From UHGV virus genome UHGV-0120889: DNA of 64,000 nt; one strand, given 5' to 3'. This document shows, piece after piece, positions 2,339-44,446 of this stretch. The position numbers and the translations under genes are program-made. The number at the start of each line of letters is the position of its first letter. Position 1 is the stretch's first letter. Source of the DNA: a virus. The notes beneath the pieces are model-generated. The model was not told the origin of the DNA. It saw only the letters and a program-made list of their open reading frames with translations, and made no database searches.

Positions 2339-3316
2339 TTATTTGTTAGATTCTGCACGTGCACGAGCAAGTGCTTTTGCAACGTTTTCAGCAAGAATTT
2401 CTTCTGCGGATTTTGCAATATCATCCACAACAGGTTCGCCATCATTACCATGTTCAGTGGTGGCAAACTCTTCTTTGGTTTTATGCACCTCTGCTTCCAG
2501 CTCTTCAATTTTTGCTTGAGCTTTCTCCAGCATAGCTACGATAGGTTCGTTAGCTTTTTCCAGCATGAAGTCAACTAGGGTTGCATGATCTTCTTCACCA
2601 ACAAAGCTTAAAGCTTGAGCCTTAGTCAGCATTTTAGCTTTTTCAACTTCAACCTGGGCCTTGATGATTTCTTCAGCTTTACTCTGGGTTGCTTTCAGCT
2701 CTTCTACTTGCTTCAGCAGATCCAGATACTCTTTAGTTTTGGTTACGTCCACCGGATTCTCCTCGGTATTTGCGGATTTTGCAACATCATCCACCTCGGC
2801 AGTTTTATCCACCTCAGCAGGTTCCTGTACCGCCTTGATCAGGTTCCCTTCTTTATCGAAGAGATCAGCGGTTACTTGTTCAAAAATCTGTTGTGTTTTT
2901 AACAGGCTGTACTGATCTACCACACTAAGCTGCTTACCTTCTTTTGCAGCTTTATGAATGGTCACGTTATCACAACGCTCTTCCAGCCATGCAATACAAG
3001 ACTCTGCGTCAGCTTGCGCCCATTCCCAATCAGGATGCTCTTTGGCCCAAGCCTCCTCTTCAATCTCAAAACCAAGCATGTGTGCAAGTGCTTTAGCATC
3101 ATCATACCACATATCGAAGAAACGACGCAGGTATTCTTCAAAACTAAGCTCCACAGTAACTTGGCGAAGTGCCTTAACAATATCGTCTGTTAACTGCTCA
3201 GGCTTAAGATCACTCTTCATCAAAAGAGATACAGGTCTGTTGTTAGCGCTATAGCCTTGCGCCTTATGGCACAGGGCAATCCCCTTCTCTTTAATAGTAA
3301 TCGTTTTTTCAGACAT
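2339..3316 (-). CDS. putative scaffolding protein
   Basis: 325 aa, highly charged and Ala/Glu/Lys-rich with predicted coiled-coil character, between portal-side genes and decoration/capsid genes. Confidence 0.45.
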   Translation of the reverse strand: MSEKTITIKEKGIALCHKAQGYSANNRPVSLLMKSDLKPEQLTDDIVKALRQVTVELSFEEYLRRFFDMWYDDAKALAHMLGFEIEEEAWAKEHPDWEWAQADAESCIAWLEERCDNVTIHKAAKEGKQLSVVDQYSLLKTQQIFEQVTADLFDKEGNLIKAVQEPAEVDKTAEVDDVAKSANTEENPVDVTKTKEYLDLLKQVEELKATQSKAEEIIKAQVEVEKAKMLTKAQALSFVGEEDHATLVDFMLEKANEPIVAMLEKAQAKIEELEAEVHKTKEEFATTEHGNDGEPVVDDIAKSAEEILAENVAKALARARAESNK

Positions 3317-3735
3317 TATTCATTGCCCTCTTCTACAACACTGATCCCGAAGTTTACGTTGGTAATTTCACCAGTTTCTTCATCAACATTACCTGTTGCC
3401 TGAATGCTTAGGCCACCAACAATGCCAGCCTTCTTAGCTTCCCATAATTCAGGATTATTGTATTTAACTTTAGCAACCCAAGAGCCAGCCTTGATGACCT
3501 GCTCAGTGCCAATTACTACAACATCAAACTCTTCTTGAATCCACGTCTTTTCAATAGTGAAAGCATCTGTAGAGGTCAAGTGAAAAAGGTTTTCAGAAAC
3601 TAGGCCTGCGGCGTATGCTGCGTCCCAGTTATCTTTAGCCTTTTTGATGGTGTCTTTACTCATCCACTCACCGTGAGCATCTTTAGTGTCAGGCTCGTAG
3701 ATGATTTCGTAGGAAATCATTTCTTCCTGTGGCAT
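3316..3735 (-). CDS. putative head morphogenesis/maturation protein
   Basis: ORF track extends to 3891 and overlaps portal; internal ATG at 3733-3735 (MPQEEMISYEI...) with GGGGAA upstream removes the overlap. Position between portal and scaffold is where head proteases usually sit; function is inference. Confidence 0.35.
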   Translation of the reverse strand: MPQEEMISYEIIYEPDTKDAHGEWMSKDTIKKAKDNWDAAYAAGLVSENLFHLTSTDAFTIEKTWIQEEFDVVVIGTEQVIKAGSWVAKVKYNNPELWEAKKAGIVGGLSIQATGNVDEETGEITNVNFGISVVEEGNE

Positions 3736-3802
3736 CTTATTCCCCATGTGGATTATTTTATCACGCCAAAGGAGGTTTTGCAACCCCCTGTGTTGATAAT
3801 TT

Positions 3803-5359
3803 TTAATTTTCCATGTTGGATATGGAATTATCTCTGGTTGATGACATCTTAGAAGTGCCGTTGCCAGTGGATCCTGCAGCCATTCCATCACCAGCCCTAC
3901 TGATGTCCTGGCCCAAGAGCTTCATCAGCTCTTCCTGATCCATGTCCTCGTCAAATCTTTCATCAAACCCGCCTACTTCAAGAATCTTATTAATTACTGC
4001 AGGAGTTTTTGGCAAGTAACCTACAGCACCGATCCTCTGGACAAACTTGGAGAAGCTCTCCATATCCACTTCTTCAATCAGACCAGGTTTCAGTTTAGGC
4101 ATATCATCATCTTCAAGGATGATACCATTCAATGCCAGAAGCTGCGGAATAAGATCTTTATTGAAGGCCTCAGTGATAATATCTATATCACGCTGAACAA
4201 AATGACCATGGATAGACTGTTTTGACTCAGACAGAGAGAAGGACCCAACGTTATCGTTACCGAGGTTAATAAAGCCAGCACCGAAACGGTCAAGAATCGC
4301 CTTCTTACGGGCATCAATCAAATCTTTAGTGGAATACTGCTTACCCATACCGTCAACCCCCTTCAGGGTCATGGAGTAAAGCTCTTTACCAGACTTATCT
4401 CTATCAGACGGAAGTATAAAGAAACTTTGCTCACCACTATGGGCGTTTGCTGCGTCAAGCATAAGGTCTGCAACCATTCTCCCTTCCATTGAATTCGGGT
4501 CAATGCTGGCCTTGTTCAAAATATTGGAAGGAATTTTCAGCTCAAGCACACCACCAAGGTCTTTGGAACAGCCAACAACCTCAAGGTTTTCAATCAGAAC
4601 TTTCTCACGGAAAGATCTGTAGCAACCTATCATCGGTGACACACCTGCAGGGTTAGATTCTGTTCCTGACAGGGTCATGAGCATAAGCTTTTTAGCAGGG
4701 ATGAAAATTTCAGGCTCATTAAAGCCTTTTGAAGGCATTGCAGCAAGAGGTCCAGCCCAGCGTGCATTCTGAGTGTTTAGAAATGCATTAGGTGATTGAT
4801 AAATACCTGTCAGTGTTCTACTATTCTTGTCAAAGACAAACGGCTCTGATCTGGACAAACTGGCCTGAGGTCGGAATGCAATTTTATCAATAAGAAGCAT
4901 CCCGGCATATTTACCTTCTTTCTCTCTGCGGTATACTTTCTCAAACAGTGAAAAACCATACTCGTTAAAGGTAGCTGCACTTCTTGCAATATCTCGAAGA
5001 GTTTGTTGGTTTGCCAAATTACGCAAAGAATACTCTATAAGCTCGGCAGCTTTCTTAGAGTCTTCACTTTTAACATTATAAAGGATCTTAAAATCATTAA
5101 ATGCTTTCGTGATGAAAACATATTTTGTATCTAAGGCAGTAGCAACTGTGGAATCACATTTCATAGTCTCCACTGTAGCAATCAGCTGAGGCCAACGCAA
5201 TTCCTCAACCATCATAGATTGCGATTCTGCCATAATTTGGGAAAGTGCGCCAGAACCGATCTCACTCATACGAACATTATGAGTTGGTGCGCCTGCGTTC
5301 CCAGATTTATTCACAGTTTTGGCTGTGGCGTTGTGTTTCCTGCGGTTCTTTTTGGACAC
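3803..5359 (-). CDS. portal protein
   Basis: 518 aa ORF immediately downstream of terminase large subunit on same strand; size and position typical of portal. Confidence 0.65.
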   Translation of the reverse strand: MSKKNRRKHNATAKTVNKSGNAGAPTHNVRMSEIGSGALSQIMAESQSMMVEELRWPQLIATVETMKCDSTVATALDTKYVFITKAFNDFKILYNVKSEDSKKAAELIEYSLRNLANQQTLRDIARSAATFNEYGFSLFEKVYRREKEGKYAGMLLIDKIAFRPQASLSRSEPFVFDKNSRTLTGIYQSPNAFLNTQNARWAGPLAAMPSKGFNEPEIFIPAKKLMLMTLSGTESNPAGVSPMIGCYRSFREKVLIENLEVVGCSKDLGGVLELKIPSNILNKASIDPNSMEGRMVADLMLDAANAHSGEQSFFILPSDRDKSGKELYSMTLKGVDGMGKQYSTKDLIDARKKAILDRFGAGFINLGNDNVGSFSLSESKQSIHGHFVQRDIDIITEAFNKDLIPQLLALNGIILEDDDMPKLKPGLIEEVDMESFSKFVQRIGAVGYLPKTPAVINKILEVGGFDERFDEDMDQEELMKLLGQDISRAGDGMAAGSTGNGTSKMSSTRDNSISNMEN

Positions 5360-6583: not shown

Positions 6584-6899
6584 CGTTTATGTTCGGGCAA
6601 GGTCGCTAGTCTTGCCCCGCCATTTTCAGGCAGCTGCATGTCTCCATGCAGACCAGACTATATCTTATAAGCGACAACAACCGCTTATCCTCCCGTTTCG
6701 AATCGCTTGATTCTACGTCTTTCGACTAGTCGTTGAACGTTCATCCTCTCGGATGCTTCGCTGCGGATTATCTAAATTAACACACTGTTACCATACCTTC
6801 GATCTCTCTTCGAAGCCTCTATCATGTTACCATGACAGGTTGGTGGTATTAATAGTAAAGATTTCCCCGCAATTAGGGAGGTTTTACGAGAGCTACAAA
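6584..6899 (-). ncRNA. group I self-splicing intron (ORF-less) in terminase large subunit gene
   Basis: Minus-strand hallmarks in canonical order: exon ends GAGGGU then UAA; internal guide GCUCUC (plus 6888-6893) pairs with exon end; P-like AAUUGCGGGGAAA (plus 6863-6875); R-like GUUCAACGACUA (plus 6723-6738); S-like AAGAUAUAGUC (plus 6656-6666); terminal G at 6584. Confidence 0.7.
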
Positions 6900-6902
6900 T
6901 TA

Positions 6903-7328
6903 ACCCTCATCGAAGCAAACCATGGTGTACTCAAGCCCTTGATGGTTAAGCTTATCTTGTACATACTCCATGTGGCAGTATTTTACAACAGCTCCCTTTT
7001 TGCTTCTATCCCACTTGCCAGTGTTCGGATCAAACCGTGGAAAAATGAACTTATGATCCTTCTCTCTGAACTTTGGCTTAATGTTTTCAGGCAGATCACT
7101 ATAAATAGCTACCGCTTTAGGCCATAGTCCACCCTCACCTTCCAACTGCGGGGTTGTTCTTCGGAACATAACCACAGAGCTGTGGGGGTCATCAATAATT
7201 TTAAGTGGCATCAATTGCAAGAGGAACGACTTGCCAGACCCTGCGGCACCGCCGATTACCAAAATATCTGCATCGTTTTCGAGGATCATCTTCTGCTTTT
7301 CAGAACACGGTCCGTAAATCTTAGACAT
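6903..7328 (-). CDS. terminase large subunit, exon 1 (N-terminal ATPase: Walker A and B)
   Basis: Walker A VIGGAAGSGKSF and Walker B MVCFDEG; frame hits TAA (6900-6902) immediately after the Gly codon, which is the first codon of the intron. Confidence 0.75.
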
Positions 7329-8431: not shown

Positions 8432-8508
8432 TGGTCTCCACGGAGTGATTCGAACACTCGACCTCCTGATCCCAAATCAGGCGCTCTACCAAGCTGAGCT
8501 ACGCGGAG
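8432..8508 (-). tRNA. tRNA-Pro (anticodon UGG)
   Basis: Hand-folded cloverleaf: acceptor CUCCGCG/CGUGGAG, D-arm GCUC..GAGC, anticodon stem CCUGA/UCAGG with loop UUUGGGA, T-arm GAGUG-UUCGAAU-CACUC, encoded CCA. Confidence 0.8.
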
Positions 8509-8519
8509 TATTTATTATT

Positions 8520-8594
8520 TGGTGGCCCTGGGTGGAATTGAACCACCGTCTGGCGATTATGAGTCGCTTGCTTGAACCTTCCAGCTACAGGGCC
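8520..8594 (-). tRNA. tRNA with anticodon CAU (Met or lysidine-modified Ile)
   Basis: Acceptor GGCCCUG/CAGGGCC, anticodon loop CUCAUAA, T-arm GGUGG-UUCAAUU-CCACC, encoded CCA; Met versus Ile2 cannot be told from sequence. Confidence 0.7.
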
Positions 8595-8595
8595 A

Positions 8596-8671
8596 TGGTG
8601 CTGATGGCAGGACTTGAACCTGCAACCTATTGATTACAAATCAATTGCACTACCAATTGTGCTACATCAGC
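8596..8671 (-). tRNA. tRNA-Thr (anticodon UGU)
   Basis: Acceptor GCUGAUG/CAUCAGC, D-arm GCAC..GUGC, anticodon stem AUUGA/UCAAU with loop UUUGUAA, T-arm GCAGG-UUCAAGU-CCUGC, encoded CCA. Confidence 0.8.
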
Positions 8672-8679
8672 AAAAAAGG

Positions 8680-8776
8680 TGCTAGGTGATGGAATCGAAC
8701 CACCTATGTATTCAACGACTACCTCGTCTATTTTCAGGATTAAAAATCCTCGCCCTTGCCAAAGGGCTTACCTAGC
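8680..8776 (-). tRNA. atypical long tRNA-like gene (about 97 nt), anticodon uncertain (candidate UUU) or pseudo-tRNA
   Basis: Perfect 7-bp acceptor GCUAGGU/ACCUAGC, D-arm GCCC-UUUGGCAA-GGGC and T-arm GGUGG-UUCGAUU-CCAUC, but about 30 extra nt between a short AGGA/UCCU stem (loop UUUUUAA) and the T-arm; no encoded CCA. Confidence 0.4.
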
Positions 8777-8874
8777 TCAGTATGTTGACCATGTTGCTAG
8801 TCGGCGATGACGACTGTAACATTTGATAATCCGGTTCTGCTTCCGGCTTTCGCTTAATTACAAGGTCAACAATA

Positions 8875-8965
8875 TGGCTGAGGGTAATGGAATCGAACCA
8901 TCATCGAGTCATCCTCAACGGGACGGTTTTCAAGACCGCTTGAGCACCATTGCTCCCTACCCTCA
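8875..8965 (-). tRNA. tRNA-Ser (anticodon UGA), long variable arm
   Basis: Acceptor UGAGGGU/ACCCUCA, anticodon stem GCGGU/ACCGU with loop CUUGAAA, long variable arm, T-loop UUCGAUU, discriminator G plus CCA. Confidence 0.7.
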
Positions 8966-9079
8966 TTTATAAACAATACTGATAATGACACTGATTTTCG
9001 AGCAGTTAGTGACTAGTATAAACGACGATAAATATCAATGCCATTATCTGTATGATTTATGCATTTAAAACTATAAATT

Positions 9080-9166
9080 TGGTGGGGAGTGGTGGAGTCG
9101 AACCACCCGAGTCGTAATGACAATAGATTTACAGTCTACACCGCTACCTCTACGGGATAACTCCCC
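9080..9166 (-). tRNA. tRNA-Tyr (anticodon GUA), long variable arm
   Basis: Acceptor GGGGAGU/ACUCCCC, anticodon stem GUAGA/UCUAU with loop CUGUAAA, T-arm GGUGG-UUCGACU-CCACC, encoded CCA. Confidence 0.75.
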
Positions 9167-9170
9167 AATT

Positions 9171-9245
9171 TGGCACCCCGTACTGGACTCGAACCAGTGT
9201 CAACGGCTTAGAAGGCCGCTGCTTTATCCACTAAGCTAACAGGGC
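9171..9245 (-). tRNA. tRNA-Arg (anticodon UCU)
   Basis: Acceptor GCCCUGU/ACGGGGU (two G.U), anticodon stem GCGGC/GCCGU with loop CUUCUAA, T-arm ACUGG-UUCGAGU-CCAGU, encoded CCA. Confidence 0.75.
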
Positions 9246-31883: not shown

Positions 31884-32162
31884 ATGAGCTGCGAAAAATC
31901 TTTTTTCATCATCATTTACGGTAAGGATAACTGCCCACATTGTGTCAGAGCAAAAGAATTTGCAATCAGCAAAGGTCTGCCTTTTGTATATAAGACACTT
32001 GGCGAGGGCTACACAAAAGAAGAGCTTATTGAGAAGTGCAGTCCAATCGTCCCCCGAACGTTGCCGCAGATCTTCTTAGAAAGCGATCTTGACAGTATCC
32101 ATATAGGCGGTGCCGACGATTTCATCTCTTTTGTTAAGAATGGTTTTGGAGAGAAAAAGTGA
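31884..32162 (+). CDS. glutaredoxin-like protein (NrdH/Grx family)
   Basis: 92 aa with CPHC redox motif, between nrdB and nrdD. Confidence 0.6.
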   Translation: MSCEKSFFIIIYGKDNCPHCVRAKEFAISKGLPFVYKTLGEGYTKEELIEKCSPIVPRTLPQIFLESDLDSIHIGGADDFISFVKNGFGEKK

Positions 32163-33019
32163 AAGTTGTAAAACGGGACGGTAGAGAAGAGTTCTATAAC
32201 GGAATTAAGGTGATCAAGGCGGCAGAGTCCGCCTTACTTGAGTCTGGACATACTGAAGAAGAAGCTTACCGGATCGCTTGTGCGGTTAATGAAGTTGTTG
32301 CTAACAATCTGCCAACCGACCAGTGCACGATCTCTGTAAAAAATATCCATATCCTTGTTGAAGATGCTCTTATGGATATGGGTTTAAAATGTGCAGCCAG
32401 AGAATACATCCAGTATAGACAGACAAGAGATAATAACAGAGAGGCAGGTGGAAAACTACTTGCAGATATTAGTGGCTTCTTGGATCGAACTTGTGATGAA
32501 TTTACAAAAGAAAACGCAAATAAGCCCACTAATCATGTACACACTCATCGTGACCTGCTTGCAGGCATCCTTAGCAAACACCTTGCATCAACACAGATCC
32601 TGCCAGACCGTGTTTCAGAAGAGCACAATAAAGGCTTCATCCATGTGCATGATCTTGACTACTTGATCAGTCCGTTAACAAACTGTTGTTTGGTAAATTA
32701 TCCAGATATGTTGGAAAACGGATTCAACATTGGCAACGCCCATGTCAGTAAGCCGAAGTCAATAGGGGTTGCAACAACAATCCTTAGTCAAATCTCTAGC
32801 GCGGTAGCTAGTGCTCAATATGGTGGTCAGACTATGAGCCATATTGATCATTATCTGGCACAGTATGCTGAAGCAACCTATGAGAAGAACCTTAAATTTT
32901 GCCAGGAACATTGGTTGCCGGATGCTGAAACTGTTGCAATGCAAATGACAGATAAAGATGTATTTGACAGCATGCAGACTTTGCTCTATCAAATCAATAC
33001 GTTAACCTCTGTCAACGGT
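32159..33019 (+). CDS. nrdD: anaerobic ribonucleotide reductase NrdD, exon 1
   Basis: Ends ...YQINTLTSVNG matching NrdD (E. coli EYEVNTLHTANG as recalled); frame hits TAA at 33020-33022, the first intron codon. Confidence 0.8.
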
Positions 33020-33173
33020 TAACAAACTGGCCGTTGTAAAACTCTCCTAACCTCATAAGAGGGGTCGGTAAATCCGGCTAACGGGGAACGCTAAGGCGAA
33101 AGCTATGCCAATCCCGTGACTAGTTCTTACAGGAGTTGGAACGGTTGTAACGACTAACGAAAGGCAGAGATGC

Positions 33174-33202
33174 TTGACAAACATTTCTGAACCAAGTAGT
33201 GT
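33174..33202 (+). promoter_or_regulatory. sigma70-like promoter inside nrdD intron, upstream of HNH ORF (TTGACA-N17-TAGTGT)
   Basis: TTGACA at 33174-33179, TAGTGT at 33197-33202. Confidence 0.4.
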
Positions 33203-33243
33203 AGGGGTTAGTTGAAATACTAACTTCGAAATGGAGAGGCTCT

Positions 33244-33777
33244 ATGAAAAAGATCATTCTTAATGGTGAAGAATCGAACTATGTGATTGATGAGGTTGGA
33301 AACGTATACGGAAAACGTGGAATGCTACACCCAATATTGTGGGGAGGTTATGGAAAAGGTAACAAGCATGTTAAACGCCGTTATATGTACTCTTTCAACC
33401 ACAAAGGTAAAAAGATTCGAATCCAAACCTCAAGGGTTGTTGCCTTGTATTGTTTGCCAGATGTCCCAGAAGACCCTGAAAACTGGGAAGTGAATCATAA
33501 AGATGGCAATACATTGAATGATCATCCGTCTAACCTAGAGTGGGTTTTGCCGGAAGATAATAAGAGACATGCTTTCCGAACAGGACTTTGTCCAGGTAAG
33601 TGCTATAGGAAAGTGCAGGCATACAAAGGGAAAATCTTGGTGGGTGAATATCCTTCACTCTATGCCTGTGCAAAAGCCTTAAATTTGAACGTAGGTAACG
33701 TTCACAGGGCTATCGAAGGAAATGCCGAAGGTAAGCATCTCACAATAAAGGGTTATTATCTTATTGAAGTAGAGTAA
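33244..33777 (+). CDS. HNH homing endonuclease (intron-encoded)
   Basis: EVNHKDGNTLNDHPSNLEWV is a classic HNH motif; 177 aa inside the intron. Confidence 0.75.
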   Translation: MKKIILNGEESNYVIDEVGNVYGKRGMLHPILWGGYGKGNKHVKRRYMYSFNHKGKKIRIQTSRVVALYCLPDVPEDPENWEVNHKDGNTLNDHPSNLEWVLPEDNKRHAFRTGLCPGKCYRKVQAYKGKILVGEYPSLYACAKALNLNVGNVHRAIEGNAEGKHLTIKGYYLIEVE

Positions 33778-33816
33778 GAGATAGTCTGGCCCTGTGGAAA
33801 CACAGGGAGGAGACAG

Positions 33817-35079
33817 CAGACTCCATTCATCACATTAAGTTTAGGACTAGATACCTCGGTCTTTGGTAGAATGATTACCAAAAACTACTTGAAAGTCCAC
33901 AAAATGGGTCTTGGTGAAGAACGTATCACACCTGTGTTCCCTAAAGTGCTGTTCTTCCTGGAAGAGGGTGTCAACATGAACCCTGGGGATCCTAACTATG
34001 ATTTGAAACGATTAGCTCTGGAATGCTGTGCAGAACGTATCTATCCTGACTTCGTATCTGTACCACTAAATAGAAAAGTGACAGGCTCGACAGATGGCAA
34101 AGTAACTAGCATGGGTTGCAGGAGTTTTCTTAGCAAATACAATGACTTGGAAACAGGCGAGGAGAAATACCTTGGCAGATTTAACTTAGGCGTTGTTAGC
34201 CTTAACCTGCCAATGATTGCGGCAAAAGCTAAAACGGAAGGTGTTGATTTCTTTGCAGTTCTTGACGAATACCTGGATCTTGCATACGAGGCTCACCTTG
34301 TAAGGGTTAATCGTCTAAAAGGGACAAAGGCAGGGCAGAACCCTATCATGTGGTGTGAAGGCGCTCTTGCTCGCCTGGACCCTGAAGAGAGTATTGATAA
34401 ACTCTTCTATGACGGGTACGCTTCCATCAGTATTGGGTATATTGGTGTGTATGAAACCTGTCAGATTTTGGGCAGAGAGGGTGACAAGGCTTTAGCTCTT
34501 GGAATCCTTCAGCACATGAGAGATGCTTGTGAGCGACACAAGAAGGAAAGTAGACTAGCGTTTAGCTTGTACGGCACCCCTTCTGAGAGTCTATGCTATA
34601 AAGCTGCAACCTGTCTGGATCGTGAATATCCTGAAGTGTTGAAGCACGAGCATGAATATCTCACCAACAGTTTCCATCAGCCAGTATGGATCAATAGCTC
34701 TCCTTTTGATAAGTGGGAGTATGAGGAAGGTTTTGCTATGATCTCCTCTGGTGGCAACATCGGATACGTAGAGACACCAAATCTGAAAAACAACTTAGAT
34801 GCTTTGGAAGCTCTTGTTGATTTCGGATATAAACACATTATGTATTTTGGTATTAACCAACCTGTGGATAAATGTCTCAAGTGTGGTTTCTCTGGTGAGT
34901 TCAGTGCAACAGCTAAAGGCTTTGTATGCCCAGAGTGTGGAAACCATGAAGAGGGAACGATCAGTGTAATTCGACGTGTGTCTGGATACCTTTCCAGTCC
35001 TAACTCCCGTCCTTACAATAAAGGTAAGCAAGCGGAAGTTATCGAGCGAGTTAAGCACTACGGAAGTTGTGGTTGCTGA
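33817..35079 (+). CDS. nrdD: anaerobic ribonucleotide reductase NrdD, exon 2
   Basis: Starts QTPFITLSLGLDTSVFGR...ITPVFPKVLFF...GDPNYDLKRLALECC, continuing NrdD; C-terminal glycyl-radical/zinc region; spliced protein about 707 aa. Confidence 0.8.
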   Translation, partial: QTPFITLSLGLDTSVFGRMITKNYLKVHKMGLGEERITPVFPKVLFFLEEGVNMNPGDPNYDLKRLALECCAERIYPDFVSVPLNRKVTGSTDGKVTSMGCRSFLSKYNDLETGEEKYLGRFNLGVVSLNLPMIAAKAKTEGVDFFAVLDEYLDLAYEAHLVRVNRLKGTKAGQNPIMWCEGALARLDPEESIDKLFYDGYASISIGYIGVYETCQILGREGDKALALGILQHMRDACERHKKESRLAFSLYGTPSESLCYKAATCLDREYPEVLKHEHEYLTNSFHQPVWINSSPFDKWEYEEGFAMISSGGNIGYVETPNLKNNLDALEALVDFGYKHIMYFGINQPVDKCLKCGFSGEFSATAKGFVCPECGNHEEGTISVIRRVSGYLSSPNSRPYNKGKQAEVIERVKHYGSCGC

Positions 35080-35142
35080 TTCTTGACAAAAGCCACAAGA
35101 ATGTGGCATATTATTGACACACAGTGAGCTAGGAGGTGCAGT

Positions 35143-35259
35143 ATGTCATCAGGTATTTATAAAATTTGCAAGTGCGGCTGTAGTTGTAATCTTCGTTGGT
35201 GCAAGGCACTAGACGATTTTATTTGGCATTGCCCTAAATGTGATGCGGAGTATCTATGA
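35143..35259 (+). CDS. small Cys-rich zinc-ribbon protein (38 aa)
   Basis: MSSGIYKICKCGCSCNLRWCKALDDFIWHCPKCDAEYL; RBS AGGAGG; stop overlaps nrdG start (ATGA); below track size cutoff. Confidence 0.4.
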   Translation: MSSGIYKICKCGCSCNLRWCKALDDFIWHCPKCDAEYL

Positions 35260-35729
35260 ACATTGCTGGATACACAGAAATATCTTACACCGAAGGACCA
35301 GGTATTAGAACTGCCTTGTGGGTATCTGGGTGCCCACACGCTTGCCCTGGTTGCTTTAATCAGGCATTTTGGTCAAAAGATAAGGGGAGGAAGTTCACTG
35401 AAGAAGACTTGCAAAAAATCTTGTCAGATTTAGATAACCCGTCTGTGTGCGGTATCTCTCTACTAGGTGGAGAACCCTTAGCATACTATAATGAGCCAGA
35501 TATTATTAGCCTGATGGAGAAAATTAAGGAAAAATTTGGTGACAAGAAAACTATTCTTGTATATACTGGGTTCACATTTGACCATATCTCTAGTGATGTT
35601 CTTAAACTGGCTGATATCATCATTGACGGTAAGTATGTAAAAGATTTACCAACCAAGAAACCGTTCCGAGGCAGTGATAACCAAAGAATGTTTAAAAAAG
35701 TATCAGGCGGTTGGGTTCAGGTAGACTAG
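35256..35729 (+). CDS. nrdG: anaerobic RNR activating enzyme NrdG (radical SAM)
   Basis: Cys motif CPHACPGC; 157 aa downstream of nrdD. Confidence 0.8.
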   Translation: MNIAGYTEISYTEGPGIRTALWVSGCPHACPGCFNQAFWSKDKGRKFTEEDLQKILSDLDNPSVCGISLLGGEPLAYYNEPDIISLMEKIKEKFGDKKTILVYTGFTFDHISSDVLKLADIIIDGKYVKDLPTKKPFRGSDNQRMFKKVSGGWVQVD

Positions 35730-35732
35730 TTG

Positions 35733-35762
35733 TTGACAAAGCTTTGTTGAGTTGGTTATAAT
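35733..35762 (+). promoter_or_regulatory. sigma70-like promoter (TTGACA-N18-TATAAT)
   Basis: TTGACA at 35733-35738, TATAAT at 35757-35762. Confidence 0.6.
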
Positions 35763-35791
35763 TGCCGTAATGAAAGCAGAGGAGGTGCCAA

Positions 35792-35905
35792 ATGGCTAAA
35801 AAAGCCTTGAAGAAGGCGTACAAGAAAGAGATTGCGCTTGAGCTTAAGAAAAAACACAAGCGTGAAAAGAAACATCATGAAGATGAAGAGGGGGTGCAAC
35901 AGTGA
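35792..35905 (+). CDS. small highly basic protein (37 aa)
   Basis: MAKKALKKAYKKEIALELKKKHKREKKHHEDEEGVQQ; RBS GAGGAGG; stop overlaps GTG start of next ORF. Confidence 0.4.
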   Translation: MAKKALKKAYKKEIALELKKKHKREKKHHEDEEGVQQ

Positions 35906-36252
35906 CACAAGAACGTATCGATTTGGCTAATAAGTTTGTAGATCTCATTTTGCCACGGTTAGTTACTCAACATGCAGATGCTATTTCTACTAATCTTGAT
36001 GGCTTACGCCTAATGCTGAATCGCACAGATGACCCTCGTATTCGGGCTGATTTAGAAGCCTCTGCCAACAAACTGGAAAAGTTCTTGCAAGTAGACACGC
36101 AAGAAGCCTTGCACAAGATTATGGTGGAAGGTTTCTCTAAAGAATTTACCATTAAAGAGCTTAAGGAGCTGATCCACCAAGAAGAGATGAATATCCGAGT
36201 TCAGGCTGTTGCAAGCAGCATGGAAGCGGCTATTGAAAAACTGTTGCAGTAA
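35902..36252 (+). CDS. hypothetical protein
   Basis: 116 aa ORF with GTG start. Confidence 0.4.
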   Translation: MTQERIDLANKFVDLILPRLVTQHADAISTNLDGLRLMLNRTDDPRIRADLEASANKLEKFLQVDTQEALHKIMVEGFSKEFTIKELKELIHQEEMNIRVQAVASSMEAAIEKLLQ

Positions 36253-36290
36253 AAGTACTTGGCACATCTCAATCTGAAAGGAGTCCCAAC

Positions 36291-37079
36291 ATGGGTCGAG
36301 CTAAAGAAACAAAACGCATGCGTGATGAAGCTAGAGAGGCTCGCAAATCTGATCGCCTGCGTAAGGCTGCTGAGAAATTTGCTGACGAAAGAGAGCACAC
36401 CGCTCCAGCTCTCCGACCAATGAATAAGAAGCAGCAAAAGTATCTTGATTATCTAGGGTCACGTAAGATTATTATTGTAAACGGTGTGTTTGGATCTGGT
36501 AAGACATTCATGGCATCTGCATATGCAGGTGATCTTCTGCGTAAGAACGAGATTGATAAGATTATTGTTGCACGTCCTTACGTTCAGACAGGAAAGACTT
36601 CAGGATTTAAACCTGGAAATGCAATGCAGAAACTGTGGCCCTATCTTCGAAGCATGATGGACACGATTTGTCGTCGTGTTGGCAAAGGTGCTTTTGCCGC
36701 AATGCTGGGAGACGGTCAGAACAGCCGTATCGAGATTTGTGAAGTTGAAAGCATTCGTGGTCGTAGTTTCGATGAGCGATGCTTTGTCCTGATTGACGAG
36801 GCACAGCAAACTAACCCTGAAGAAATGTTGTCAATTATCACAAGGATCTCTGATCAAGCCACCCTTGTAATTATGGGTGATAATAGCCAACGTGACATCC
36901 CTGGTAAATCTGGCCTTGCATGGGTGACGGATTTCTTTACTCGTCATCCAGATCCTGAGGTTGGAATGATCAGCTTTGATAGTCCAGACGATGTCGTTCG
37001 TTCTGGGTTGGGTCGTCAGATCGCACTCAATCTTATTGAGGATCGTGCAAATCATATTTGGACCCCTGTTTCCGAGTAA
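36291..37079 (+). CDS. phoH: PhoH-like ATPase
   Basis: P-loop GVFGSGKTF and downstream LIDEAQ, IMGDNSQRD motifs typical of PhoH. Confidence 0.75.
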   Translation: MGRAKETKRMRDEAREARKSDRLRKAAEKFADEREHTAPALRPMNKKQQKYLDYLGSRKIIIVNGVFGSGKTFMASAYAGDLLRKNEIDKIIVARPYVQTGKTSGFKPGNAMQKLWPYLRSMMDTICRRVGKGAFAAMLGDGQNSRIEICEVESIRGRSFDERCFVLIDEAQQTNPEEMLSIITRISDQATLVIMGDNSQRDIPGKSGLAWVTDFFTRHPDPEVGMISFDSPDDVVRSGLGRQIALNLIEDRANHIWTPVSE

Positions 37080-37123: not shown

Positions 37124-37152
37124 TTGACAAATAGGTAAGCTTTAGATATTAT
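37124..37152 (+). promoter_or_regulatory. sigma70-like promoter (TTGACA-N17-TATTAT)
   Basis: TTGACA at 37124-37129, TATTAT at 37147-37152; preceded by hairpin AAGGGTGG-TTATT-CCACCCTT (37085-37105). Confidence 0.55.
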
Positions 37153-44047: not shown

Positions 44048-44446
44048 GTGAAAAATAAACTGTTCAAAGTTACAATGAAAATTCGCGGAGCTTGGAGCGT
44101 AAAGCAAGGGCGTATTCCAGAATTTGAGAAAGACTTCTACGTAGTCTCCACCTCGGAGGAGGCTGCATGCTGGCAAGCTGGCTATGCCTATGCAAGAACC
44201 TGGTACGAAGGATACCAGACTGGGGGCTATGACGGAGAAATTATCAGCAAGGGTGTAGAAGAAATTAATGTGTTGACAAGTGAAAAAGTTTTTGTTATAG
44301 TGCATCCAGATTCCAGAGTGAAGCATTACTGGAATGCCAGAACAAAAACTTGGACACCGTTTGCAGATTCTGCTACGCCACTTTTAAACCAGAAAGCTCT
44401 TGACTCTGCCCCAAGTTATGGGGTTGTTGAAGAAAAGCTAAACTGA
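44048..44446 (+). CDS. hypothetical protein, paralogue of 46253-46648
   Basis: Shares FV(I/M).HP.S...YW and (T/E)WTP with 46253-46648. Confidence 0.45.
   Translation: MKNKLFKVTMKIRGAWSVKQGRIPEFEKDFYVVSTSEEAACWQAGYAYARTWYEGYQTGGYDGEIISKGVEEINVLTSEKVFVIVHPDSRVKHYWNARTKTWTPFADSATPLLNQKALDSAPSYGVVEEKLN

Follow-up and report, generated by a model that had tools for sequence, protein, structure and literature searches.

The group I intron in the nrdD gene of phage T4 (the sunY intron) is known to be self-splicing. It has an IA2 core without P2, begins with an in-frame stop codon and carries, after P9, an ORF for I-TevII, an endonuclease of the GIY-YIG family. The T4 introns in td, nrdB and nrdD share a layout for endonuclease expression, in which a promoter lies inside the intron and the ribosome-binding site is paired in transcripts coming from upstream, but free in the short one (PMC2988022). 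Another well-described system is the DNA polymerase intron of phage SPO1, which encodes the HNH endonuclease I-HmuI (PDB 1U3E), whose nicking activity is known (cited in PMC3984707). Within the Vequintavirinae, Pectobacterium phage CB7 holds HNH introns in terL, the DNA polymerase gene, nrdA and nrdB, the splicing of which was demonstrated by RT-PCR, and no interruption of its nrdD was reported (PMC7344957). An intron in terL has also been described in rV5, a phage with sigma-70-type promoters spread over its genome (PMC3606486).

The DNA analysed here is a stretch of 64,000 nucleotides (the window) from the virus genome UHGV-0120889. The original prediction had related it to the T-even phages; with 95-98.5% identity to slur16, FFH2, FV3 and the BASEL phages, it belongs instead to an rV5-like Vequintavirus. 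Its nrdD gene is interrupted at the NG/QTPF junction by a 797-nt group I intron (33020-33816, plus strand), which is very probably a mobile IA2 element carrying an HNH ORF. A second group I intron, which had also been foreseen, matches RF00028 with 84 bits (6634-6912, minus strand) and corresponds to the rV5 terL intron.

The split of nrdD and the stop codon following exon 1 were found exactly where they had been proposed. Exon 1 (32159-33019, plus strand; 287 codons in the ORF list) encodes the ATP-cone and the N-terminal part of NrdD according to Pfam, and ends in GTC AAC GGT, followed by an in-frame TAA (33020-33022). Its last base, T33019, is the U of the 5' splice site. Exon 2 (33817-35079, plus strand; 420 codons and a stop) starts with CAG ACT CCA TTC, encodes the glycyl-radical domain (Pfam NRDD and Gly_radical), and presents its first start codon, ATG 33871, only 18 codons in. 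In the Pfam NRDD profile, exon 1 covers positions 1-154 and exon 2 positions 156-562, so that both parts abut at the junction. The joined exons encode a NrdD of 707 aa, the same length as the product of the uninterrupted APECc02 gene, and a 600-nt spliced junction aligns contiguously with APECc02 at 99.7% identity. The exact boundaries are given by the approximately 78 of 120 related genomes in which the exons are joined without a gap; these intronless relatives fix the 3' boundary unambiguously at G33816, the last intron base and the omega-G. The predicted spliced junction consists of GTCAACGGT joined to CAGACTCC.

Near-identical copies of the intron are present in 28 GenBank records, some of which annotate a spliced gene and most of which annotate two nrdD CDSs. 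The vequintavirus nrdD intron was described in none of the papers found and is known from GenBank annotation only, such as the joined CDS of MZ501111, which follows the method in PMC8594841. In the literature searched, no experiment was found that shows this intron to splice or its endonuclease to cut.

The resemblance to T4 sunY includes the host gene, the IA2 core lacking P2 and the stop codon at the intron start, and extends to the initial UAAC, a UAAAA joiner, a 6-bp P3, the presence of P7.1 and P7.2, the sequence AAGAUAUAGUCU and a P9 hairpin. The original prediction had taken the element for the expected T4-type nrdD intron, an expectation that does not hold. The T4 insertion site is located inside codon Y180 (AYE-Y/EVN), 32 nt upstream of the site used here, which in equivalent residues falls between G190 and Q191. 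In addition, the HNH ORF is inserted in P8, in contrast to the GIY-YIG ORF that T4 places after P9, and T4 sunY lacks two hairpins found here between P3 and P4. BLAST revealed no significant similarity between both introns, only blocks of 7-13 nt in core motifs (best E = 0.6). Given the different site, the different endonuclease family and the lack of BLAST similarity, the idea that the two are orthologues was rejected. Some relatives hold an nrdD intron at a second site, and it is this one that shares 81% identity with the T4 core.

The core of the intron shows the canonical order P3, P4-P6, P7, P8 and P9, including the P3/P7 pseudoknot, collinear with that of T4 sunY, and the fold of the ORF-deleted intron reaches z = -6.1. 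The 7-bp guide pairing proposed originally is P1, in which exonic CAACGGU (33013-33019) pairs with GCCGUUG (33030-33036), including a U33019.G33030 wobble at the splice site; it was read from the sequence and also appears in the minimum free energy (MFE) fold. P10, likewise read from the sequence, pairs CUG (33027-33029) with the CAG that opens exon 2 (33817-33819). The 5' strand of P3, CUCUCC (33042-33047), pairs with 33233-33238, and 11 of 14 related introns have a covarying partner at the equivalent place (binomial tail 5e-5 to 5e-6), with variants such as CUCUGC/GCAGGG, CACGGUG/CGCCGUG, CACACCC/GGGUGUG and, in T4, UCUGCC/GGCAGA. This anchored test, from which L006 and L019 were left out, replaced a free search for the best long-range pairing, which was uninformative (mean of 6.8 for both same-intron and cross-intron comparisons). 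The Rfam alignment of T4 sunY also puts P3 on homologous strands.

Between P3 and J3/4-P4, the MFE fold contains the two extra hairpins, CCUC-AUAA-GAGG (33051-33062) and GGUCGG-UAAAU-CCGGCU (33063-33079). Both were recovered at the same position in all 15 divergent relatives, each folded separately. P4 (ACGGGG/UCCCGU, 33081-33086 and 33112-33117) and P5a (GGC-GAAA-GCU, 33095-33104) come from the MFE fold, while P5 (GC/GC, 33090-33091 and 33107-33108) is backed by covariation as well: it is paired in 100% of the introns with variation on both sides (GC 7, CG 4, UA 3, GU 1), and none of 500 shuffles reaches its score. The covariation of P4 is uninformative, as this helix was fixed by the search pattern. 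In a MAFFT alignment of the whole core from nine compact relatives, the columns were inconsistent between P7.1 and P8, and for this reason the formal count of pairs was confined to P4-P5. A hairpin read from the sequence at 33122-33137 (AGUUCU-UACA-GGAGUU) is tentatively assigned to P6a; at this place, an ORF-less allele of the intron carries a different hairpin, GCUUCAC/GUGAGGC, which is likewise self-complementary.

The R-like and S-like elements flank the ORF, as had been proposed. The R-like element, GTTGTAACGACTA/GUUGUAACGACUA (33144-33156), is located approximately 88 nt upstream of the ORF, contains the 5' strand of P7 (GACUA, 33152-33156), and is collinear with CCAACGACUA of T4 and with the relatives. 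The S-like element, AAGAGATAGTCT/AAGAGAUAGUCU (33776-33787), directly 3' of the ORF, contains the 3' strand of P7 (UAGUC, 33782-33786). RF00028 aligns P7 (GACUA/UAGUC) as well as P9 (CCCUGUG-GAAA-CACAGGG, 33790-33807), the latter also present in the MFE fold. P7.1 (33165-33189) was recognised by the complementarity of CAGAGAUG (33165-33172) and CAUUUCUG (33182-33189) around the loop CUUGACAAA; its position, between P7 and P7.2, agrees with T4 and the relatives, and it is identical in all copies. P7.2, GGGGUUAGU-UGAAAU-ACUAACUUC (33204-33227, with strands 33204-33212 and 33219-33227), belongs to the MFE fold and is followed by the joiner GAAAU (33228-33232); a GUAGGG...CGAAAY motif ahead of the 3' strand of P3 is common to T4 sunY and the relatives. 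Next comes GGAGAGG (33233-33239), which is at once the 3' strand of P3 (33233-33238) and the Shine-Dalgarno sequence of the HNH ORF. P8 is formed by (G)CUCUA (33239-33244) and UAGAG(U) (33770-33775), with the ORF looped out, so that its AUG (33244) lies in P8 and its UAA (33775-33777) in J8/7. For P7.1, P8 and the promoter motif discussed below, no covariation signal is possible, given that the HNH-type copies are nearly identical. As the stretch from P7 to the 3' strand of P3 contains both P7.1 and P7.2, the intron is assigned to subgroup IA2, with a sunY/Twort-like core.

Two pairings of the MFE fold were discarded. The fold pairs UAGUC with a GACUA at 33118-33122, which has no counterpart in T4, whereas 33152-33156 is homologous in T4 and the relatives; it also pairs the 5' strand of P3 with 33808-33813, where the homologous strands of T4 and the relatives favour 33233-33238. 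Both are treated as limits of pseudoknot-free folding. The covariance-model scan suggested with the original prediction gave a partial match: the permissive local scan scores 28.7 bits over the 3' part of the intron, below the RF00028 gathering threshold of 50 bits, which the ORF-less and two-intron relatives at this site do not reach either. The ORF-less allele aligns end to end with 29.3 bits (E = 1e-5), compared with 105 bits for T4 sunY. The low score is explained by the 534-nt ORF in P8 and by the two P3-P4 hairpins, which break the P3 of the model.

The ORF (33244-33777, plus strand; 177 aa in the ORF list) encodes an HNH protein, in agreement with the original prediction. Pfam HNH_3 is matched with 29.5 bits (gathering score 24.8), PHROG 59, an HNH endonuclease family, with 3.6e-26, and a NUMOD-like Pfam region of I-HmuI with 18.4 bits, below its cut-off of 27. 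The only match in the PDB is I-HmuI (1U3E; phmmer E = 1.8e-4), with residues 8-160 aligned to 8-159. His85, Asn97 and Asn106 align with H75, N87 and N96 of I-HmuI, while its Asp74 is replaced by Asn84. Both proteins are of the same type and size (174 aa in SPO1) and both reside in phage group I introns, but they differ in host gene and phage group, and their identity is low. According to these data, we infer that the 177-aa protein is a homing endonuclease of the I-HmuI type. It would probably nick intronless nrdD near AACGGG/CAAACT, within the empty homing site ...GTCAACGGGCAAACTCCATTC..., which in APECc02 reads ...CTCTGTCAACGGGCAAACTCCATTCATC....

Sequence comparison among copies reveals constraint on both components. 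The ribozyme parts show between zero and four changes in 263 nt, while the ORF has diverged to dS 0.14. With respect to FV3, the 5' 141 nt hold no change, when approximately 18 would be predicted under neutrality from the ORF dS of 0.137, and the remaining four changes in the RNA either fall outside helices or convert G.U into A-U. The ORF differs from that of FV3 by 14 synonymous and two non-synonymous changes, and its dN/dS of 0.03-0.17 reveals purifying selection. The near-invariance of the ribozyme parts, together with this ORF dS and dN/dS, indicates that the RNA and the protein are both functional.

The nrdD site occurs in three states, with the HNH intron in 28 records, an ORF-less intron of 257 nt at the same site in 14 and an empty site in approximately 78. 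Among the BASEL phages, for example, WalterGehring and MaxBurger carry the intron, JohannBauhin and JeffSchatz lack it, and AlexBoehm has the ORF-less form. Empty alleles were drawn from GenBank phages; a degenerate-pattern scan of IMG/VR for such alleles returned nothing. Within 130 nt on either side, the exon flanks of the window differ from those of empty APECc02 only at -1 (T for G) and +3 (G for A), and the flanks of FV3 equal those of empty YP-6 at all variable positions from -130 to +130 except -1, +3 and +6. Position -1 is T in the seven intron alleles sampled and G in the seven empty ones. At least three exon haplotypes harbour the intron, and their tracts span only 1-6 nt, a length compatible with nicking near the insertion site. 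The ORF-less allele has foreign flanks of approximately 60 and 40 nt, with 10 mismatches confined to the 100 nt on either side. The exon haplotypes point to homing that occurred repeatedly and co-converted very short tracts. During co-infection, repair from an intron-bearing genome would copy the intron and a few flanking bases, among them the T at -1, which the ribozyme would need for its U.G pair. The mobility in this lineage put forward in the original prediction is hence supported, and the patchy distribution and the co-converted flanks are better evidence for it than the second intron of the window.

In the model that we favour, the pre-mRNA would fold into the ribozyme and undergo two guanosine-initiated transesterifications, at U33019 and G33816, joining Gly287 to Gln288 in a NrdD of 707 aa. 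The UAA that constitutes the first intron codon would halt ribosomes coming from exon 1. It is highly improbable that the insertion is instead retained in the RNA as the relic of a ribozyme, with NrdD made of two assembling polypeptides. Such an arrangement has a precedent in the nrdA of Aeromonas phage Aeh1, split by mobE (cited in PMC7344957), and would suit both the two separate nrdD CDSs of most GenBank records and the sub-threshold Rfam score. However, all core helices are intact and 141 nt remain unchanged next to an ORF dS of 0.14, the T at -1, relevant for splicing only, is strictly linked to the presence of the intron, exon 2 lacks a start codon until ATG 33871, and the 257-nt ORF-less allele would have no reason to persist except splicing. 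A non-spliced split gene was rejected on account of the constraint and the -1 linkage. Another possibility is that the intron splices, but owes its patchiness to ordinary recombination in co-infection or to mobilisation in trans, with an HNH protein that is inactive or has another role. The replacement of Asp74 by Asn84 would fit this proposal, as would the ORF-less allele, whose co-conversion-like tract shows that an intron can move at this site without a resident ORF. Nevertheless, the ORF is under purifying selection, its product retains the catalytic His, Asn and Asn, and the intron occupies at least three exon haplotypes with tracts as short (1-6 nt) as a cut or nick right at the site should leave, making this explanation improbable.

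Regarding the expression of the ORF, the original prediction included an internal promoter. The motif, TTGACA (33174-33179)-N17-TAGTGT (33197-33202) on the plus strand, is indeed present; as an internal promoter it is only plausible. Its -35 hexamer lies in the loop of P7.1, and its -10 overlaps the conserved GUAG...GGG motif of the ribozyme. If active, it would be predicted to start a transcript near 33209. In the folded precursor, the Shine-Dalgarno sequence would be sequestered in the 3' strand of P3 and the AUG in P8, so that folding of the ribozyme and translation of the endonuclease should be mutually exclusive. Transcripts from the putative internal promoter would omit the 5' strand of P3 and free the ribosome site, as occurs with the T4 intron endonucleases. 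The putative promoter, as in T4, is placed just upstream of the ORF; T4 uses middle or late phage promoters and a dedicated masking hairpin, whereas here the candidate promoter is of the host sigma-70 type and the masking would be carried out by P3.

The chances are evenly balanced that, in an intron that splices and is mobile, the motif arose by chance or as a by-product of the structure, and that small amounts of the HNH protein are made from unfolded precursor or excised intron, with no dedicated transcript. The window contains 32 motifs of this class, of which approximately three would be expected by chance (3.1), and in a leave-one-out PWM ranking the intronic copy occupies position 29, among the weakest. 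It lacks the TGn of an extended -10 and is omitted by a stricter generic promoter scan, and part of its -10 is the motif conserved in relatives with no promoter, such as T4 sunY and L009. Nor was the promoter region found to resemble the homing site as a T4-style operator would, the best match being 7 nt, which 81% of shuffles reach. Against a by-product stand the tenfold enrichment of the class and its co-orientation with the genes, the perfect -35, the 17-nt spacer, the distance of 42 nt from the end of the -10 to the AUG, the lack of change in both hexamers in FV3 and the identical layout found for the intron endonucleases of T4 (PMC2988022). A bolder view joins two proposals: that the ORF is integrated into the ribozyme core even more closely than in T4, splicing and homing being the exclusive fates of two different transcripts, and that the intron belongs to an undescribed large IA2 sub-architecture. 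The former would rest on the Shine-Dalgarno sequence in the 3' strand of P3, the AUG and stop in P8 and J8/7, and the host-type promoter in the P7.1 loop; the latter, on a sunY-like core without P2 with two extra hairpins between P3 and J3/4, the first of which, in metagenomic relatives, appears to form a kissing interaction with the loop of P7.2 through loop sequences that covary. Taken jointly, they are unlikely.

The mobile IA2 intron of the vequintavirus nrdD is an element of an ordinary kind, with near-identical copies already annotated in public phage genomes, and it leaves the existing knowledge of group I introns unchanged. Its main value concerns annotation, as the gene should be read as one spliced NrdD of 707 aa, and not as two fragments as in most of the 28 records. 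It also adds a third independent intron site within approximately 330 nt of the conserved nrdD core, besides those of T4 and the second vequintavirus site. Finally, approximately 120 sequenced and culturable coliphages in three allelic states constitute a natural series for homing, suited to measuring homing by a probably nicking HNH enzyme, the very short tracts that it co-converts and what it costs to place a ribosome-binding site within P3.

The order nrdA, nrdB, glutaredoxin, nrdD and nrdG is found on the plus strand (ORF list and Pfam), with nrdD in two pieces. The ORF at 32159-33022 ends in ...SVNG followed by TAA, and the nrdD frame is picked up again at 33817 (QTPFITLSLG), the Pfam NRDD profile being matched over positions 1-154 in the first piece and 156-562 in the second. 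Joining 33019 to 33817 yields a NrdD protein of 707 aa and leaves an insert of 797 nt, which contains a 177-aa ORF (33244-33777). The final 300 nt of exon 1 were joined to the opening 300 nt of exon 2, and this 600-nt query matched 120 phage records. The majority of them align as a single unbroken piece, as does APECc02 (99.7% identity), where nrdD is one CDS of 2124 nt; the 797-nt insert with the HNH ORF is present in 28 records, and an ORF-less insert of 257 nt occupies the identical position in 14. Since the last bases of exon 1 and the intron (T and G) are unlike, as are the first bases of the intron and exon 2 (T and C), the boundary cannot slide; on this sequence comparison, the intron is delimited to the base. 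The region shows 95-98.5% identity to Escherichia phages of the genus Vequintavirus (slur16, FFH2, FV3 and several BASEL phages), so that the T-even lineage implied by the original prediction is rejected. Across nrdD, E. coli vequintaviruses are also matched at 95-98% identity by some 18-19 records (MG0656xx) that bear the label 'Campylobacter phage'; these host labels look doubtful.

The whole-window scan with RF00028 gave no match at the nrdD site that reached the gathering score. Also below it were a local match of 28.7 bits to the S/P9 part of the intron and a match of 29.3 bits (E = 1e-5) over model positions 1-253 to the allele of phage nom, which naturally lacks the ORF, while the T4 nrdD (sunY) intron, proven to be self-splicing and used as a control, scored 105 bits. 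Because the gathering score was not reached, the anatomy was compared directly with T4 sunY and 20 related introns, taken from IMG/VR with the P4...Q motif TAACGGGGAAC...CAATCCCGTG. The intron begins with UAAC; P1 (CAACGGU/GCCGUUG, with the pair U33019.G33030) is followed by the joiner UAAAA, the 5' strand of P3 (CUCUCC, 33042-47) and two extra hairpins (33051-62 and 33063-79). P4 (ACGGGG/UCCCGU), preceded by UAA, leads to P5/P5a with a GAAA loop, the hairpin P6a, an R element containing GACUA (33152-56), P7.1 (33165-89), a GUAG..GGG motif with P7.2 (33204-27) and the 3' strand of P3 (GGAGAG, 33233-38), preceded by GAAAU. P8 (CUCUA...UAGAG) closes the ORF, after which come AAGAGAUAGUCU, with the P7 3' strand UAGUC (33782-86) within it, P9 with a GAAA loop, and omega-G at 33816. 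T4 sunY has the same order of elements without the two hairpins, and its ORF sits after P9. The presence of P7.1 and P7.2 places the intron in subgroup IA2. At this site, the covariance-model check put forward in the original prediction returned sub-threshold matches only; the anatomy is collinear with T4 sunY. The reading in kind (a group I nrdD intron with a HNH homing endonuclease ORF) was right, and every sequence detail given, from the TAA and the 7-bp guide to the R- and S-like elements and TTGACA-N17-TAGTGT, was found in place.

When the 7 nt after the joiner downstream of P7.2 were searched for a 5' partner, a perfect P3 partner of 6-7 nt was found at the equivalent position in 11 of 14 independent introns (under a conservative null using partners from other introns, the binomial tail is 5e-6 for runs of 7 or more and 5e-5 for runs of 6 or more). 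The pairs vary: CUCUCC/GGAGAG in the window, CUCUGC/GCAGGG in nom, UCUGCC/GGCAGA in T4, and CACGGUG/CGCCGUG, UCGGGUG/CGCCCGA, GAGCGUG/CGCGCUC, UAACGUG/CGCGUUA, UUCAUUG/CGGUGAA, CACACCC/GGGUGUG and AAUAUCU/GGAUAUU in other relatives. Both pairs of P5 are formed in every sequence, with variation on both sides (GC, CG, UA, GU), and their covariation score was reached by none of 500 shuffles (slid controls were 30-55% paired); P4, set by the search pattern, is uninformative in this respect. Single-sequence folding independently predicted the two extra hairpins in 15 of 15 relatives, ending immediately before UAA-P4. The ORF-deleted intron folds with z = -6.1, and its MFE structure yields P1, both hairpins, P4, P5, P7.2 and P9, the P3/P7 pseudoknot being beyond what MFE can draw. 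The MFE structure pairs the P3 5' strand (UCUCCU, 33043-33048) with AGGAGA at 33808-33813, just upstream of the 3' splice site, a complementarity that could be competing, regulatory or due to chance. In five IMG/VR relatives (L006, L007, L009, L010 and L013), the loops of the first extra hairpin and of P7.2 are complementary (window equivalents 33055-58 and 33213-18); the loop pairs, compared by eye only, covary (UAUCA/UGAUA, UACCA/UGGUA, UGCCA/UGGCA, AUCAA/UUGAU), which suggests a kissing-loop clamp in those relatives. By eye, no such complementarity is evident between the window loops, AUAA and UGAAAU.

A T4-type nrdD intron had been expected. However, the T4 site lies inside codon Y180 (AYE-Y/EVNTLFSSNG/QTPF, slashes marking the T4 and window sites), 32 nt upstream; the T4 ORF encodes the GIY-YIG enzyme I-TevII, whereas that of the window is HNH; and similarity is confined to short core blocks. 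The window intron is therefore a different intron at a neighbouring site of the same conserved nrdD segment. Another nrdD site, between ...AGCATGGGT and TGC (MGCRSF motif), is empty in the window (34122/34123) and lies ~330 nt downstream of the T4 site. It is occupied in JEP1 (L002, ~2465-3215), YP-6 (L028, ~3110-3860) and the IMG/VR contig L008; the introns of JEP1 and YP-6 hold a 510-nt ORF, annotated in JEP1 as a HNH homing endonuclease, and that of L008 is compact, with a core 81% identical (146/181) to that of T4 sunY and the guide GCUCAUG kept. From its sequence, it looks like a T4-type intron moved to a similar 5' exon (AUGAGU vs AUGGGU). The second intron that the original prediction reported for the window is indeed present, at 6634-6912 (-): there, a group I intron without an ORF (RF00028, 84.3 bits, E = 5.5e-20) splits the terminase large-subunit gene (exon ORFs ~7328-6913 and 6550-5462); it is the counterpart of the terL intron known from rV5. 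A tRNA cluster at 8435-9245 (-) gave six matches, two of which, at 35.5 and 29.9 bits, clear the Rfam threshold only narrowly.

Exon flanks, 130 nt on either side of the insertion site, were compared in 14 alleles. Empty alleles read ...AACGGG/CAA... across the insertion site in 7/7; HNH-intron alleles have ...AACGGT before the intron and CAG... after it in 5/5, and ORF-less alleles GGT and CAA in 2/2. P1 requires the T at -1, and the G at +3 lengthens P10 (CAG/CUG). From -130 to +130, the window departs from the empty APECc02 allele only at -1 and +3; it is distinguished from the other HNH-intron phages at -13 and +33, and FV3 agrees with the empty YP-6 allele at all variable positions save -1, +3 and +6. 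One and the same intron is thus found in three or more exon haplotypes, and in each of them the conversion tract spans a few bases. Had the intron been lost precisely, T at -1 and G at +3 would have stayed behind in the empty alleles; none of the seven compared has them. The ORF-less allele of nom shows 10 mismatches to the window in the proximal 100 nt on each side, and the 200 nt beyond are free of mismatches on both sides, a pattern which, at the sequence level, is that of a classic co-conversion tract.

The 177-aa ORF scores above the Pfam HNH_3 threshold and matches PHROG 59 (HNH endonuclease, 3.6e-26). The only solved structure matched was I-HmuI (1U3E; residues 8-160 vs 8-159 of 174, E = 1.8e-4), a nicking enzyme of the HNH type encoded in the DNA-polymerase intron of SPO1. 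His85, Asn97 and Asn106 align with its HNH residues, and Asp74 is replaced by Asn84; by this relationship only, we infer that the window protein nicks DNA. Compared with FV3, the ORF has 14 synonymous and 2 non-synonymous changes (dS = 0.137, dN/dS = 0.03), no change falls within the intron's first 141 nt, and the remaining RNA parts have 4 changes: two in single-stranded stretches (33190-96 and 33228-32), one in the 3' tail, and one turning G33239.U33775 into A-U. The exon flanks are only 88-96% identical (segments of 100-200 nt). Taken together, this comparison indicates that RNA and protein are both under purifying selection.

GGAGAGG (33233-39), 4 nt 5' of the AUG at 33244, is at once the Shine-Dalgarno sequence and the 3' strand of P3; the AUG lies within the P8 5' strand and the stop codon within J8/7. 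The ribosome site should be masked in the folded precursor. In the IMG/VR relative L013 (intron ~3459-3553 (-) and downstream), the ORF is likewise inside P8 (GACUAUUUC...GAAAUAGUU), with its ribosome site AGGAGG inside the loop, separate from P3; ORFs have thus landed in P8 repeatedly within this family, with differing expression layouts.

As for the internal promoter, TTGACA-N16-18-TANNNT occurs 32 times in the window vs 3.1 expected (shuffle maximum 8, n=100), and its strand tracks the gene blocks (minus at 9-13 kb and 53-63 kb, almost all plus at 17-51 kb). Among the 32 sites are 35733-35762, a perfect TTGACA-N18-TATAAT, 37124-37152 and 44273-44301. Many copies carry a TGn extended -10. 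This class presumably represents the sigma-70-dependent promoters of the phage, and the enrichment agrees with the 33 sigma-70-like promoters reported genome-wide for rV5 (PMC3606486). A transcript from the intron copy (33174-33202) would begin near 33209, without the P3 5' strand. The motif is present as originally predicted, but the claim was over-confident: the copy ranks 29/32 in its class, has a poor -10 (TAGTGT) without TGn that overlaps a conserved ribozyme motif, and is absent from a stricter generic promoter scan. Judged on these features, the odds that it acts as a promoter are about even. A search for an operator resembling the homing site found none. Downstream of nrdD, the region 35080-36500 is variable among relatives: WalterGehring has a further 'putative homing endonuclease' there, in a part ~58-60% identical to the window, where a 38-aa Cys-rich ORF (35143-35259) precedes nrdG (35256-35729).

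Among Vequintavirinae, Pectobacterium phage CB7 carries HNH introns in terL, DNA polymerase, nrdA and nrdB that have been shown to splice (PMC7344957), and the terminase introns are the only ones described in the rV5 paper (PMC3606486); a description of the vequintavirus nrdD intron was not found in the papers searched. Public genomes already contain the intron, in part with annotation: the FV3 record (GenBank, 2012) has a 'HNH homing endonuclease' between two nrdD CDSs, and in BASEL records a joined nrdD CDS brackets a 'putative homing endonuclease', in line with the statement that BASEL intron boundaries were set through comparative genomics (PMC8594841). In kind it is nothing out of the ordinary: a mobile group I intron of subgroup IA2 that carries an I-HmuI-like HNH gene. 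Three features may deserve note, as the papers searched do not describe them: the insertion site, which is new; the use of a P3 strand as the Shine-Dalgarno sequence; and the two extra hairpins, which, on their predicted folds, are common to a large metagenomic family and the window intron.
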